In this document: one piece after another, positions 34,380 through 38,354 of the stretch
How the letters are laid out: every line of letters starts with the position of its first letter
Position numbering within the stretch: position 1 is the stretch's first letter
Assembly: GCA_963770895.1 (NCBI GenBank)
Contig: CAVYRF010000001.1
Coordinates: 1,088,001 to 1,152,000 of the forward strand
Length of the DNA: 64,000 nucleotides
Reading direction: 5' to 3'
Source of the DNA: an uncultured Acidobacteriota bacterium
GTDB taxonomy: Bacteria > Acidobacteriota > Thermoanaerobaculia > Multivoradales > UBA5704
Program-made: the position numbers and the translations under genes
Notes under the pieces: model-generated
Seen by the model: only the letters and a program-made list of their open reading frames with translations
The model's database searches: none
Told to the model about the DNA's origin: nothing

Positions 34380-34512
34380 GCAGGGGCCTCGGCAGGTGGC
34401 AGGTTTGGCAGGCGACGCCGCGCCAGGGCGTCGGCGAGGCGGCTCCAGGGGGACTGCTCCGCGGCTGCCGGCGGATTGACGGCATTCACCTGGCGCACGA
34501 TACTACGCGCCC

Positions 34513-34950
34513 ATGGAAGGCAAGGTGGAAGGCACCGGCACCGACCCAGACCCAGGCGCGGCGGCGGAAACGCCGGCAGCGGCGGCGATCGATTGGGAGA
34601 TGCGGCCCCGGCGTGCCGCGGGCATCGAGCTGAGCGAGGTGACCGACGGCTTCCTGGTCTACCAGCCGCAGCGCGACCGCGTGCACTACCTCAATCCGAC
34701 GGCGGCGCTGGTCCTCGAAGCGTGCGACGGCTCCATCCGGGCGGGCGATCTGCCGGTCTTCCTGGCCGGCGCCTTCCAACTGGCCGTGCCGCCGTACGAC
34801 GAGGTGGCGGGCTGCCTGGCGAAGCTCCTGGCGGAAGGGTTGCTGGTGGCGGCGGCGGACGGCGGCGATGGCGGCCTGGACGATCGGGAGGGTCGGGAGG
34901 GTCGGGACGGTCGGAGCGGTGGCGAGGGTGGCGGCGCGCCGCCGCTGTGA
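34513..34950 (+). CDS. PqqD-family RiPP recognition element (stand-alone RRE)
   Basis: EVTDGFLVYQPQRDRVHYLNPTAALVLEACDG...VAGCLAKLLAEGLL. Confidence 0.9.
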   Translation: MEGKVEGTGTDPDPGAAAETPAAAAIDWEMRPRRAAGIELSEVTDGFLVYQPQRDRVHYLNPTAALVLEACDGSIRAGDLPVFLAGAFQLAVPPYDEVAGCLAKLLAEGLLVAAADGGDGGLDDREGREGRDGRSGGEGGGAPPL

Positions 34951-35054
34951 TAACCTAATGGTGACCGTAGTTTAGGTTGCGTAGCTGCTTCAGGGACACG
35001 TATACGGACTGATTCTCGATCGATTCTCGATCGACCTTCAACGGGGGTGAACGC

Positions 35055-35534
35055 GTGGCACCGGAAGAGTCACAGCGACTGTTGGATCGTCTGGGTTCCG
35101 ATCGTCGGCAGTTCCTGCAGAAAATCCTGCTGACCGCCTATGCCGCGCCGTTCGTGGCGTCCTTCGGCATGAAGGGCCTGGGGCTGGGCGAAGCGATGGC
35201 GCAGTCCAACCTCTGCTCCAACGTGACGGTGCCCAATACCTCGGCCGACCTGGTCATCACCAAGAGCGCCTCACCCAGTCCGGCGGTGCCGGGCGCCAAC
35301 CTTACCTACAGCATCTTCGTCGTCAATTGCGGGCCGGCCGTCGCCACCAACGTCAGCGTCTCCGACCCCATCCCGACCGGTACCACGTTCGTGTCGGCCA
35401 GCCAGACCAGCGGCCCGACCTTCACCCTGGGCACGCCGCCGGTGGGGGGCACCGGCACGTTCATGGCGACCATCCCCACCCTGAGCGCGAACGCCACGGC
35501 CAGCTTCCAGCTGGTCGTCTTCGTGACCCCCTGA
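35055..35534 (+). CDS. Leader-bearing precursor: twin-Arg/YxxP leader, short Ser/Asn/Cys segment, C-terminally truncated DUF11 Ig-like domain
   Basis: DRRQFLQK...AYAAPFVASF; AMA-QSNLCSNVT; ADLVITKS...PGANLTYSIFVVNCGP..ATNVSVSDPIPTGTTFVS...ASFQLVVFVTP*. Confidence 0.85.
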   Translation: MAPEESQRLLDRLGSDRRQFLQKILLTAYAAPFVASFGMKGLGLGEAMAQSNLCSNVTVPNTSADLVITKSASPSPAVPGANLTYSIFVVNCGPAVATNVSVSDPIPTGTTFVSASQTSGPTFTLGTPPVGGTGTFMATIPTLSANATASFQLVVFVTP

Positions 35535-35550
35535 CGGAAAGAAGATCGCC

Positions 35551-35817
35551 ATGGGCCTGAAAATGCGCATGCTTGCCGCCCTGCTTCTCCTGCTGCCGGC
35601 GGCCGCCGTTGCCGCGGTGCCGCAGATCACCAACACCGTCACGGTCACCGCCACCAACGCCTTCACCGCCAACGGCGACGGCACCATGACCCTGGTGACG
35701 CCGGTGCTGATGGCGGCGCCGACGCTGTCGACGGCCGGCCTGGTGACCCTGGCCCTGGCGCTGGCGGTGTTCGCGGTCGCCCGCATGCGGCAGCGTCAGC
35801 TGCAGTCGCGCGCCTAG
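35551..35817 (+). CDS. Mini-protein: Sec signal, ~30-aa beta-rich peptide, IPTL-CTERM-type anchor
   Basis: MRMLAALLLLLPAAAVAA / VPQITNTVTVTATNAFTANGDGTMTLVTPV / APTLSTAGLVTLALALAVFAVARMRQR. Confidence 0.85.
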   Translation: MGLKMRMLAALLLLLPAAAVAAVPQITNTVTVTATNAFTANGDGTMTLVTPVLMAAPTLSTAGLVTLALALAVFAVARMRQRQLQSRA

Positions 35818-35826
35818 CGCGGCACG

Positions 35827-36969
35827 GTGCCAAACCAGCAAGACGGAGGCGGCGTCCTGCTTTCGGCCGCCCTCATCGTCCGCAACGAAGAACGGTTTCT
35901 GGCCGGCTGCCTGCAATCCATCGCCGGGCTGGTCGACGAGGTCGTGGTGGTCGACACCGGCTCGACCGACCGCAGCCGCGAGATCGCCCGCGGCCATGGC
36001 GCCCGGCTGGCGGAGCTCCCCTGGCGCGGCGACTTTGCCGCCGCGCGCAACCACGCGCTCGACCTGGCGCGCGGCGCCTGGATCCTTTACATCGACGCCG
36101 ACGAACGGGTGAGCGCGGGCGGGCGGGCGGAGCTTGAACCGCTGCTGCGCGATCCGCACCTGGCCGCGTGCACCGTGCGCTTCCGGCCGGTCACCGGCTT
36201 CACCCGCTACCGCGAATATCGCCTGTTCCGCAACCGCCCCGACCTGCGCTTTGCCGGCGTCATTCACGAGACTCACGTCCCGGCGCTGATCGACGTGTGC
36301 GCCCGCGAAGGGCTGGCCATCGCCGACAGCGCGGTGGCGATCGATCACCTCGGCTACGACGGCGACCTGGCCCACAAGCATCGCCGCAACCTGCCGCTGC
36401 TGCGCGAGCGGCTGGCGAGCGACCCCAACCACGTCTACAGCTGGTGCCACCTGGGCGTCACCCTGCACGGCATGGGCGACCAGGAGGGGGCGGAGCAGGC
36501 GTGGCGCCAGGGAGTCCAGGTGGTGCGCCAAAAGCAGGCGCGAACGATCGCCGACAGCGGCCCCTACGTCGACCTGACCCACACCTTGATGCGCCGCGGC
36601 CAGCCGGTGACGGAACTGCTGGACGAAGCGCTCTTTTTCTTCCCCGACAACTTCACCTTGCAATGGCTGCGCGCCCGCGCCCTGATCGAGGAGGGGCAGT
36701 TTGCCGCGGCGCTGCCGATCGTGGAGCGGCTGGCGGCGACCGATCCCGAAGTGGAGCTGGGCGGCGTCCTGGCCCACGACGAGCGGATCTTCGGCCTGTT
36801 CGCCTACGAGGCCCTGGGTCTGTGCTGCTTCCGGCTCGGACGTTACGCGGAGAGCGCGCGCTGGTACGGCCGCGCCGCGGAGGTCGCGCCGGCGCCGCTC
36901 GAAAACCGCACCAAGATGCAGCTGGCCGCGACCCTTGCCAATGCCACCAGCGGCGCCGGCGCGCCGTGA
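35827..36969 (+). CDS. GT2 glycosyltransferase with C-terminal TPRs
   Basis: LIVRNEE, VVVDTGSTD, DFAAARN, YIDADE, GVIHE, IDHLGY, RNLPLL followed by TPR helices. Confidence 0.92.
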   Translation: MPNQQDGGGVLLSAALIVRNEERFLAGCLQSIAGLVDEVVVVDTGSTDRSREIARGHGARLAELPWRGDFAAARNHALDLARGAWILYIDADERVSAGGRAELEPLLRDPHLAACTVRFRPVTGFTRYREYRLFRNRPDLRFAGVIHETHVPALIDVCAREGLAIADSAVAIDHLGYDGDLAHKHRRNLPLLRERLASDPNHVYSWCHLGVTLHGMGDQEGAEQAWRQGVQVVRQKQARTIADSGPYVDLTHTLMRRGQPVTELLDEALFFFPDNFTLQWLRARALIEEGQFAAALPIVERLAATDPEVELGGVLAHDERIFGLFAYEALGLCCFRLGRYAESARWYGRAAEVAPAPLENRTKMQLAATLANATSGAGAP

Positions 36970-38354
36970 ACCGGCGCCCGACCGCGCTGCTGGTCGCGCC
37001 GCTCCTGCCGGCCACCGGCGGCAACGGCCTGGCGATGCGGGCCGGGGTGTTCCTGGACGCCCTGGCCCTTGACCACCAGGTGACGCTGCTGGTGGTGCCG
37101 GTTGCCGGCGCTGGCACCGAGCCGGGCCCGCTGGTGCGCCAGTGCGCCCGGCGGGTGGCGGTGCTCGACCTGGGCGGTGCGCTGGACCCGCTGTACGCGC
37201 TCAGTTCCGGCGTGCGCGATCCCGACCAGCGCCTGGCGGCGCTGTGCGCCTACCCGCGGCCGCAGATGTGCCGCTGGGCGACCAGCCCGGCAGTCGCGCG
37301 GGCGGTCGCGGCGGTGGGCGCCGGCGACGGCGCGGAAGGCGCGGGCGACGCGGACGGTGCGGGCGAGCCTTGCGGTGCTGGCGAGGCCGAAGAGGCGGGC
37401 GAGCCTGACGGCGTTGGCGGGGCCGGCGCGGGAGGCGAGGCTGGCGAGAGAGGCGCGGCAGGCGAGCCGAGCTTTGACGCGGTGGTGGTGCTGCGCAGCT
37501 ACCTGGCGCCGTATGCGGCGCCCCTGCTGGCAGGCGCCGGAGGGCGCCGCCCGCGCTGCGTCCTGGACCTGGACGACGACGAACGGCTGACCCAGCAGCG
37601 GCTCGGCCAGCTCTACGCGCAGCGCGGCGAGGCCGGCCTGGCGCGGCTCGCCGCCGCCGAAGCCGCCAAGTACGTCACCCACGAGGCCGCGTGGCTGCCG
37701 CGCTTCGACCTGGTGCTGACCGCTGCCGATCCGCATGCGGCGGCGGTGCGGGCGCGCCATCCGGGCGTCGCGGTCGCCGTCGTTCCCAACGTCGTCACCG
37801 TGCCGGACGGCGTGGCGCGGCCGGAAGCGGCGCATGCTCCGCTGCGGCTGCTGTTGGTCGGCAATCTCGCCTACGAGCCGAACGTGGACGCCGCGCAGTG
37901 GCTTGCCGGGCAGATCGTGCCGCGGCTGGCGCAGGAGCTGCCGGTCGCGCTGCGGCTCGCCGGCGCGCGGCCGAGCGCCGGCGTGGCAGCCCTGGCCGGC
38001 GGCGGCATCCAGGTGGTGGCCGATCCGCCGGACATGGCGCCGCACTACGATTGGGCCGACGTCGCCGTGGTGCCCATTCGCGCCGGCGGCGGCACCCGCA
38101 TCAAGATCCTGGAAGCCTTCGCCGCGCGCGTGCCGGTGGTGGCCACGCGCCTGGGCGCCGAAGGCCTGGCGGTGCGCGACGGCGAGCACCTGCTGCTGGC
38201 CGACGACACCGCGGGCATCGCCGACGCCTGCCGCCGGCTGGCGGAGGACGCGGCGCTGGCGCGGCGGCTTGCCGCCAACGCCCTGCGCCTGGTGCGGGAG
38301 CGCTACTCGCGGCCGGCGGGGCAGGCGCTGATCCGCGCGCTGCTCGCGAGTTGA
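36966..38354 (+). CDS. GT4 (GT-B) glycosyltransferase
   Basis: VGNLAYEPNVDA, PIRAGGGTRIKILEAFA..VPVVAT..GAEGL; GTGA overlap. Confidence 0.9.
   Translation: MNRRPTALLVAPLLPATGGNGLAMRAGVFLDALALDHQVTLLVVPVAGAGTEPGPLVRQCARRVAVLDLGGALDPLYALSSGVRDPDQRLAALCAYPRPQMCRWATSPAVARAVAAVGAGDGAEGAGDADGAGEPCGAGEAEEAGEPDGVGGAGAGGEAGERGAAGEPSFDAVVVLRSYLAPYAAPLLAGAGGRRPRCVLDLDDDERLTQQRLGQLYAQRGEAGLARLAAAEAAKYVTHEAAWLPRFDLVLTAADPHAAAVRARHPGVAVAVVPNVVTVPDGVARPEAAHAPLRLLLVGNLAYEPNVDAAQWLAGQIVPRLAQELPVALRLAGARPSAGVAALAGGGIQVVADPPDMAPHYDWADVAVVPIRAGGGTRIKILEAFAARVPVVATRLGAEGLAVRDGEHLLLADDTAGIADACRRLAEDAALARRLAANALRLVRERYSRPAGQALIRALLAS

Follow-up and report, generated by a model that had tools for sequence, protein, structure and literature searches.

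A DUF11 (CLIPPER) immunoglobulin-like domain split over two adjacent genes: a possible natural tag and catcher pair in an uncultured Acidobacteriota bacterium

ORF1 and ORF2 are two small adjacent open reading frames (ORFs) in a stretch of 64,000 nucleotides from an uncultured Acidobacteriota bacterium of the UBA5704 lineage (assembly GCA_963770895.1, contig CAVYRF010000001.1, positions 1,088,001 to 1,152,000; this whole stretch is called the window below). ORF1 encodes the first seven β-strands of a DUF11 domain, an immunoglobulin-like (Ig-like) domain renamed CLIPPER in 2025 (PMC12617251), and the family of ORF2 provides the last two strands. The three residues of the isopeptide triad of these domains are distributed in the same way: the lysine and the aspartate are in ORF1 and the asparagine is in ORF2. 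The two proteins are probably the two halves of one DUF11/CLIPPER domain, which would be joined outside the cytoplasm. The original prediction, made from the letters of the DNA, compared the pair with SpyTag and SpyCatcher, an engineered split isopeptide pair.

ORF1 matches the Pfam DUF11 profile (PF01345) over residues 65–157 with an E-value of 3.3e-17 and 63.3 bits (cut-off 24.6), and it also matches TIGR01451; TIGR04226, the hidden Markov model (HMM) that the original prediction had named, gives no match at E ≤ 1. The Pfam match covers positions 1–84 of the 114 of the profile and ends two residues before the end of the protein. ORF2 alone gives no match with PF01345, and the mature N-termini of three of its homologues align with positions 65–114, 85–113 and 89–112. 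A profile of complete domains (A3) was built from 14 DUF11 domains, each taken from a different genome among those met in the scans of the phylum and of relatives. In hhalign, columns 1–96 of this profile align with ORF1 (probability 99.9) and columns 99–131 with residues 21–53 of ORF2 in the alignment of its family (E 1.1e-5, probability 81.5). AlphaFold2 (AF2) gives the complete domain nine strands, with a predicted local distance difference test (pLDDT) value of 97.9, and ORF1 alone the first seven (block means of 83–94 for residues 71–159), which places the cut in the loop that connects strands 7 and 8. The claim that ORF1 stops where the final strands of a DUF11 domain normally follow is therefore supported by the Pfam coordinates, by the hhalign halves and by the strand count, and the alignment to the DUF11 models confirms which strands are absent from ORF1 and matched by the ORF2 family, namely strands 8 and 9.

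The structure 9IFR is the top match in the PDB of both the ORF1 model (E 1.6e-3, TMt 0.64, 98 columns) and the complete-domain model (E 2.6e-9, TMt 0.78, 133 columns). A phmmer search of the PDB with P0157, a single-chain relative, found no match, and the complete-domain profile was needed to reach 9IFR. This CLIPPER member contains an intramolecular isopeptide between Lys715 and Asn806, with Asp-748 nearby (PMC12617251). The idea that DUF11 is a CnaA-like domain with a Lys–Asn isopeptide, on which the original prediction was built, is now shown experimentally.

The triad can be followed from 9IFR to the two genes. In the complete domains of the phylum, K7, D41 and N106 are invariant (14/14). 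K7 and N106 align with residues 10 and 101 of the 9IFR chain, which are 91 apart, like Lys715 and Asn806; the Asp counted in the alignment has chain index 44, which corresponds to residue 749 where the paper gives Asp-748, and we take the two to be the same residue despite this mismatch of one. In the same profile, the columns of K7 and D41 fall on K70 (strand 1) and D104 (the catalytic aspartate of strand 3) of ORF1, and that of N106 falls on N28 of ORF2, so the residues had been assigned correctly in the first place. Read directly, their codons are AAG at 35262–35264 for Lys70, GAC at 35364–35366 for Asp104 and AAC at 35632–35634 for Asn28. The pair thus resembles 9IFR in that it belongs to the same family, by HMM and by fold, and has Lys, Asp and Asn at the same positions. 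It differs in that the nine strands and the triad of 9IFR are on one chain, where the bond is intramolecular, whereas there are here two genes and two export signals. ORF1 has seven strands in place of a complete nine-stranded sandwich, and the residue that aligns with the strand-8 Asn of the same chain is N28 of ORF2. The domain is not on one chain, therefore the pair fails the definition of CLIPPER on that point.

The short form of ORF1 is a family. A search limited to proteins of 87–279 amino acids (aa) gave 54 matches at E ≤ 0.001, and those down to 46% identity are mostly 154–177 aa long and cover the whole of ORF1, leader included. The alignment used below (A1) contains 44 members, all of the short form (40 family proteins and 4 copies read from loci). 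In the order to which the window belongs, 300 genomes were sampled and 9 of them have a full-length ORF1. In a sample of 401 genomes of the phylum, the only full-length forms among the matches listed are three in the window's own genome, which has two further ORF1 copies on another contig (locus L013). A metagenome scan gave six loci, two of which were usable (L045 and L046).

ORF1 has 15 copies whose downstream DNA could be read, and these belong to 13 loci. One locus is in the window, another is on contig 2 of its genome and two are on metagenome contigs; the others come from seven further genomes of the order, of which two have two copies each and one was also reached by the contig scan as L014. 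A partner gene follows ORF1 in 13 of the 15 copies. Its product starts with a signal peptide, and 2–6 residues beyond the likely cleavage site there is a strand with the pattern x-x-N-x-[AV]-x-[VI], whose Asn occurs in 13/13 partners; the layout of the signal peptide, judged by eye, is like that of ORF2 in all 13. The residues T27, N28 and T29 are invariant in the six aligned ORF2 sequences. The spacers between ORF1 and the partner measure −4 (four times), −1, 2, 7, 9, 13, 13, 14, 14 and 16 nt. The spacing varies, so neither an assembly error nor a frameshift accounts for the split. The search for conserved gene pairs suggested by the original prediction thus gave a positive answer, and its argument that a separate signal peptide speaks against a simple gene break is reinforced, since each of the 13 partners has its own signal peptide at a junction of varied length.

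It was also considered that the two frames could be an artefact, that is, one gene broken by a frameshift that arose in sequencing or assembly, a pseudogene, or a single gene read by programmed frameshifting or readthrough. This is scarcely credible, and nothing was found in its favor. The short form occurs in independent genomes and in metagenomes, with differing frames, and a complete signal peptide stands at the junction in every partner. The two ORFs of the window are present as originally described, in separate frames, and the GC content at the third codon positions (GC3) of ORF2 is 0.944 in its own frame and falls to 0.693 and 0.523 in the alternative frames (GC content of the window, 0.725), therefore ORF2 is coding in that frame. 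Moreover, no fused form with the twin-arginine (Tat) leader was found among the candidates of 87–279 aa or of 280–2000 aa that were searched. The ORF1 matches of 280–2000 aa cover at most about 60% of ORF1, with the exception of one protein of 1951 aa with 32% identity. P0050, P0051 and P0053 were examined as candidates for a fused form and rejected, as they are pieces of multi-repeat proteins.

Single-chain proteins in which a signal peptide is followed by one or several DUF11 domains and by an IPTL-CTERM anchor do exist (P0157 and P0088, and others in the source genome). Their last DUF11 domain, short linker and IPTL-CTERM reproduce the residue pattern of the ORF1 domain plus ORF2, and they look like the unsplit ancestor of the pair. 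They differ from it in that they have a single Sec signal, and no Tat leader, PqqD-like gene or gene for a family 2 glycosyltransferase with tetratricopeptide repeats (GT2-TPR) accompanies them.

The evidence is not all on one side, and a series of observations weighs against the joining of the two halves. The DUF11 matches of the three ORF2 homologues have E-values of 6.9e-4, 1.4e-3 and 4.3e-3 and 17.8–20.4 bits, short of the Pfam cut-off in each case. When mature ORF1 (residues 50–159) and ORF2 (residues 23–58) are co-folded, with three controls, the score is 0.57 (0.60, 0.57 and 0.55 in the individual runs), compared to 0.02 for the best control; the runs agree in at least 97% of the contacts, and the pLDDT of the partner is at least 67. 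As to the mark, 58 of 80 solved complexes reach it, as do 2 of 110 mismatched pairs, and the passes with a score of 0.60 or less comprise 7 of those 80 complexes and both mismatches. The co-folding check that the original prediction had proposed thus has a divided outcome: the pair passes the mark, which supports it weakly (0.57 against 0.02), but it is a low-scoring pass. In addition, the domain of which the two chains form the halves has a relative of known structure, hence the pass may reflect the likeness of the fold rather than binding. On the whole, strand complementation between ORF1 and ORF2 appears rather likely.

Of the 15 copies of ORF1, two (the second one on contig 2 and that of L089) are followed directly by the glycosyltransferase gene and have no partner gene immediately downstream. 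These copies are among the points that speak for another reading, in which the two genes are independent products of an old gene fission: ORF1 would be a self-sufficient seven-stranded domain and ORF2 an unrelated anchored peptide, maybe a substrate of the glycosyltransferase, and the two would not come into contact. ORF1 could indeed be self-sufficient, because AF2 models it alone with high confidence and seven-stranded relatives exist (CLIPPER_2, PMC12617251), and the co-fold supports the pair only weakly. The tag of ORF2 is also rich in threonine and could be a target of glycosylation. We nonetheless find independent products improbable. All 13 partners keep the Asn strand a few residues past the cleavage site seen by eye, while the later domains change; the stop and start codons overlap (ATGA or TGATG) in five pairs, which suggests that translation is coupled; and the C-terminal half of ORF1 offers no conserved Asn with which its own Lys and Asp could pair (there is no Asn in this half among the columns that are invariant or at least 90% conserved in the 44 sequences).

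The bond itself faces a different difficulty. Asp104 is kept in 42/44 members of the ORF1 family and Lys70 in 35/44; in the other nine, Lys70 is replaced by S (five members), A (two), N (one) and V (one). It is also missing in 5 of the 15 locus copies, three of which are close relatives of the window copy, and the partners of these copies keep their Asn. A covalent lock is therefore not the general mechanism of the family, and the persistence of the Asn may have a structural cause. The conservation of the three residues, on which the original prediction had staked its case, holds for the Asp and for the Asn of the partners, and holds for the Lys in only the 35 members mentioned.

The strands of ORF2 may thus complete ORF1 as in donor-strand complementation, without a covalent bond, the triad being an inherited remnant. 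The Lys is dispensable in nine members, and both the gene pair and the Asn persist throughout an ITSSGM subclade. In CLIPPER, the K715A variant still folds, with unfolding at about 45 °C compared to about 80 °C, and some DUF11 domains have no triad, according to the text of PMC12617251. On the other hand, Lys and Asp are kept in most members, the pair of the window has all three residues, and the triad is invariant in the complete domains of the phylum, where the chemistry is in general use. Purely non-covalent complementation seems unlikely to us, if worth serious attention, and an isopeptide between Lys70 and Asn28 in the pair of the window is quite possible, a view that we hold tentatively.

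The export of ORF1 by a route other than that of ORF2 is suggested by its leader. The consensus of the Tat motif is S/T-R-R-x-F-L-K, placed before a hydrophobic stretch and an A-x-A site. The N-terminus of ORF1 reads S-D-R-R-Q-F-L-Q, followed by a hydrophobic stretch and A-M-A, and was recognized by eye only as a twin-arginine leader. R17, R18, A28, P32, A35, S36 and F37 are invariant in 44/44 members, and TatC is encoded in the source genome. Two points fit poorly: the Tat-signal HMMs of the Pfam and TIGR libraries give no match with ORF1 at E ≤ 1, and Tat substrates are expected to be folded before export, which agrees badly with an incomplete domain.

The leader is much better conserved than signal peptides usually are. 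This conservation suggests that it is bound by a partner, for which the PqqD-like protein encoded just upstream is the obvious candidate. Cys92 (codon 35328–35330), situated in the N-C-G-P loop that connects strands 2 and 3, is present in 44/44 members; ordinary DUF11 domains have N-x-G-P in this loop, and a Cys at the position of Cys92 is found in none of the 14 complete domains. Cys54 (35214–35216), in the N-terminal extension of the mature protein, is present in 39/44 members. The two cysteines may form a disulfide specific to the family, or may be a modification site beside a SunS-like enzyme. Together, the leader and Cys92 suggest that ORF1 could be retained and modified in the cytoplasm first and exported afterwards; this would account for an export route different from that of its anchor.

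A mechanism can be proposed on this basis. ORF1, with strands 1–7, K70 and D104, would leave the cytoplasm on its twin-arginine leader. ORF2 would be exported by Sec, and the cleavage of its signal peptide would free N-terminal strands 8 and 9 with N28, its C-terminus being held by the IPTL-CTERM anchor. Outside the cytoplasm, the strands of ORF2 would insert into the open sandwich of ORF1, which would thereby be coupled to the remainder of its partner, a membrane or sorting anchor in this pair and GEVED or further DUF11 domains in other genomes. In the members that have the Lys, including this pair, the completed core would then probably close the Lys70–Asn28 isopeptide autocatalytically. The reason for the split may be that ORF1 is modified in the cytoplasm by the neighboring glycosyltransferases and then takes the Tat route, the anchor taking the Sec route. 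In its full form, this would be a natural Tag/Catcher system, in which a Tat-exported catcher (Lys, Asp) and a Sec-exported tag (Asn) ligate autocatalytically after export and couple an Ig-like module modified in the cytoplasm to interchangeable partners (an IPTL-CTERM anchor, a GEVED domain or DUF11 stalks); the modification could be a glycosylation, S- or O-linked, carried out by the SunS-like GT2-TPR while the PqqD-like protein holds the leader. The full form is put forward as a possibility that is less likely than not.

The original prediction described the partner as a membrane anchor. The mature N-terminal tag of ORF2 is about 30 residues long and begins V-P-Q-I-T-N-T-V-T-V, and the rest of the protein is an IPTL-CTERM motif (residues 57–80 of 88) which is above the cut-off in both PF18203 (24.3 vs 20.8 bits) and TIGR04174 (24.2 vs 20.5 bits). 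It lies at the extreme C-terminus, and the helix and the R/Q-rich tail can be read in the sequence. The IPTL-CTERM-type motif that the original prediction had pointed out is thus present. A profile of six ORF2 sequences, run against 1.84 billion representatives, gave 533 proteins at E ≤ 0.001; 24 of the 150 matches listed were viewed by eye, of which 16 are small full-length proteins with the same layout as ORF2 and the other eight look like C-terminal pieces of long DUF11-IPTL proteins. The source genome has 12 IPTL-CTERM matches above the cut-off, that of ORF2 included. Several of them end very long open frames (1555–2781 aa), at least one of which is a DUF11-repeat protein.

Eight partners end in an IPTL-type anchor (five above the Pfam cut-off, L002 weakly with 12.2 bits, and L013 and L045 by eye). 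The other partners carry GEVED (one), complete DUF11 domains (two) or at least 493 aa with DUF11 (one), and one is cut by the end of its contig after 36 residues. The constant feature of the partner is the Asn strand, and the remainder varies (IPTL-CTERM, GEVED or DUF11). The idea of a tether to a membrane anchor fits the partner found here and does not fit that of one family of genomes, in which the partner has no anchor and has other domains instead; it follows that the anchor tether is one use of the split and not its definition. At the four loci L084, L085, L086 and L087 (genomes G452, G460, G458 and G463), there is no IPTL and the Asn strand is followed by GEVED or by a complete DUF11 domain; the starts of these partners overlap the stop of ORF1 (ATGA), and two of them share a C-terminal motif, F-x-D/G-G-F-E-D-G-T-T-x-x-W-S. 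At L013 (contig 2 of the window's own genome, 5046–6405, minus strand), two ORF1 copies flank one ORF2 of 138 aa. The upstream copy has neither the Lys nor the Asp and the downstream copy has both, and the stop of ORF1 and the start of ORF2 overlap (TGATG).

We know of no sorting enzyme for IPTL-CTERM. The motif marks a surface-layer protein in Methylomirabilis, as described in PMC8671808. For the pair itself, the location at the surface is an assumption, and the domain may instead be anchored to the inner membrane.

Engineered pairs are among the closest parallels. In Isopeptag, it is the peptide that carries the Asn. The separation of the Asn-bearing strand from a pilin gave the reactive pair Isopeptag/Pilin-C, and in this pair, as in SnoopTag/SnoopCatcher, a short peptide supplies one reactive residue to a truncated Ig-like domain that has the others; the larger partner of Isopeptag/Pilin-C bears the Lys, as ORF1 does (PMC4748275). 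The engineered pairs, in contrast, were derived in the laboratory by dividing single-chain domains, whereas the present putative pair is natural, conserved and encoded by two genes.

In the donor-strand filaments (chaperone-usher pili, TasA/TapA and archaeal threads), an incomplete β-sandwich receives a strand from the N-terminus of a different polypeptide, and in the archaeal threads a covalent link which involves an Asn and releases ammonia has been proposed; this link would join Asn57 to the N-terminal amine rather than to a Lys (passages of PMC9715654 on these filaments). These filaments are homopolymers of subunits that lack one strand, unlike the heterodimer proposed here, in which ORF1 lacks two strands and the triad is of the CnaA type. 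No chaperone or usher gene was seen among the scanned neighbors, in which no search aimed at a chaperone or an usher was made. The Tat-fimbriae of Haloarcula hispanica have Tat-exported, glycosylated Ig-like subunits, a donor-strand exchange proposed from AlphaFold models and a membrane-anchored protein, TafF; they differ from the pair in being archaeal filaments of unrelated families, with no isopeptide triad in the passages of PMC11821415 that describe them. The name 'DUF11' in that paper was considered as a possible sign of the same family and rejected, as it corresponds to DUF1102 (PMC11821415, same passages). The ORF1–ORF2 pair is not a member of the donor-strand pili, the archaeal threads, the Tat-fimbriae or Isopeptag/Pilin-C.

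The comparison with fimbriae raises the question of a fiber. ORF1 subunits could complement each other through the extension that precedes the domain (residues 50–63, SNLCSNVTVPNTS) and form a short polymer, ORF2 being the anchor at the base or the initiator, as proposed for TafF/TafC. The extension resembles the end of a preceding DUF11 repeat, N52, N56, A64, D65 and L66 are each conserved in at least 90% of the members of the ORF1 family, and the Tat-dependent fimbriae, with their modelled donor-strand exchange and their membrane-anchored terminator (as presented in PMC11821415), offer an analogy. A fiber is nevertheless quite improbable: the extension can supply at most one of the two missing strands, and it is poorly conserved in the genomes labelled f7.

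To our knowledge, autocatalytic isopeptide domains are known only as intramolecular staples. The splits SpyTag, SnoopTag and Isopeptag are laboratory inventions, which have become major tools. No natural split of an isopeptide domain over two genes was found in the literature searched, which leaves subscription journals outside. If the proposed system is real, evolution has reached the same tag and catcher solution as the laboratory, and has produced a new pair, orthogonal in sequence, with natural variants that have or lack the Lys. It would also provide diderm bacteria with a route for coupling a Tat cargo to a Sec-inserted partner after export, and would be the first covalent protein–protein ligation in the bacterial envelope which is independent of sortase and encoded by two genes.

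Table 1. Coordinates in the window of the features of the ORF1–ORF2 locus.
Feature	Position	Strand	Description
Promoter-like site	34476..34504	+	just upstream of the PqqD-like gene; weak, consensus match only
PqqD-like gene, 145 aa	34513..34950	+	first gene of the cassette; Pfam PqqD (PF05402)
ORF1, putative 'catcher' half	35055..35534	+	GTG start 35055, stop 35532–35534, 159 aa; leader, then DUF11/CLIPPER strands 1–7
ORF1 leader, residues 1–49	35055..35201	+	RRQFLQ twin-arginine motif, conserved h-region, A-M-A cleavage-type site; by eye
DUF11 strands 1–7, ORF1 residues 64–159	35244..35531	+	Pfam, hhalign, AF2
ORF1–ORF2 spacer	35535..35550	+	16 nt; ORF1 and ORF2 in different frames
ORF2, putative 'tag plus anchor' half	35551..35817	+	ATG start 35551, stop 35815–35817, 88 aa
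ORF2 Sec-type signal peptide, residues 1–22, ends A-V-A-A	35551..35616	+	by eye
ORF2 mature N-terminal 'tag', residues 23–53 (DUF11 strands 8 and 9)	35617..35709	+	hhalign to complete domains
IPTL-CTERM sorting/anchor motif	35719..35790	+	P-T-L-S, hydrophobic helix, basic tail to residue 88
GT2 glycosyltransferase with TPR tail	35827..36969	+	last gene of the cassette; Glycos_transf_2, 73.7 bits, plus TPR families

The pair is embedded in a cassette composed of the PqqD-like gene, ORF1, the partner and the GT2-TPR gene, which is found in the window (34513–36969) and at L013, L014, L045, L046, L081–L086 and L089. The PqqD-like gene is directly upstream of ORF1 in 10 of the 13 loci and the GT2-TPR gene downstream in 11 of the 13; the misses for these two genes are mostly at contig ends. 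The PqqD-like protein of the window scores 18.8 bits with a cut-off of 23.4, and its counterparts at L014, L046 and L013 score 28.1, 30.7 and 31.2 bits, respectively. The GT2-TPR scores 60.5 bits against TIGR04195 (SunS), the cut-off of which is 350; it is not a SunS equivalog, and it shares the GT2 and TPR layout. A literature search for a SunS S-glycosyltransferase with TPR found no match. The other accessory genes nearby vary (GT10, GT1, an Anp1-like glycosyltransferase, a sulfotransferase and a FkbM methyltransferase). The cassette looks like an undescribed protein-modification pathway which would act on ORF1 or on ORF2, and its PqqD-like, SunS-like GT2-TPR, glycosyl-, sulfo- and methyltransferase components hint at modification of a folded Ig-like module.

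One promoter-like site was found, compared to a mean of 0.1 in shuffled sequences, and there are no terminator-like sites within 34400–37100, which is compatible with a single operon. In the 104-nt gap that follows the PqqD-like gene, 20 nt upstream of the start of ORF1, there is a perfect 11-bp tandem repeat at 35011–35034 (GATTCTCGATC, 2.2 copies), which may be regulatory.

ORF2, taken from any of its three ATG starts, has no exact entry in a collection of 15 billion proteins, in which ORF1 is present; ORF2 is probably an uncalled gene in this genome. A word-index protein search with ORF2 gave 34 candidates, none of which reached E ≤ 0.01, and it did not return ORF2 itself, which is an effect of gene calling and not a sign of absence. 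The ORF2 homologues that are called are unnamed or annotated as 'hypothetical protein'. An antisense ORF of 438 aa (35461–36777, minus strand) crosses ORF2 and the glycosyltransferase gene and may be the reason why ORF2 was not called. Between 33000 and 38500, there are many long overlapping ORFs on both strands, which are the usual product of a GC content of 72.5% and not genes. None of the sequencing-run contigs listed spans the whole ORF1–ORF2 stretch, and 35566–35676 is uncovered by them; a 624-nt contig of the sequencing run X2, which may derive from the source sample, is identical to 34939–35562 and extends just past the stop of ORF1.

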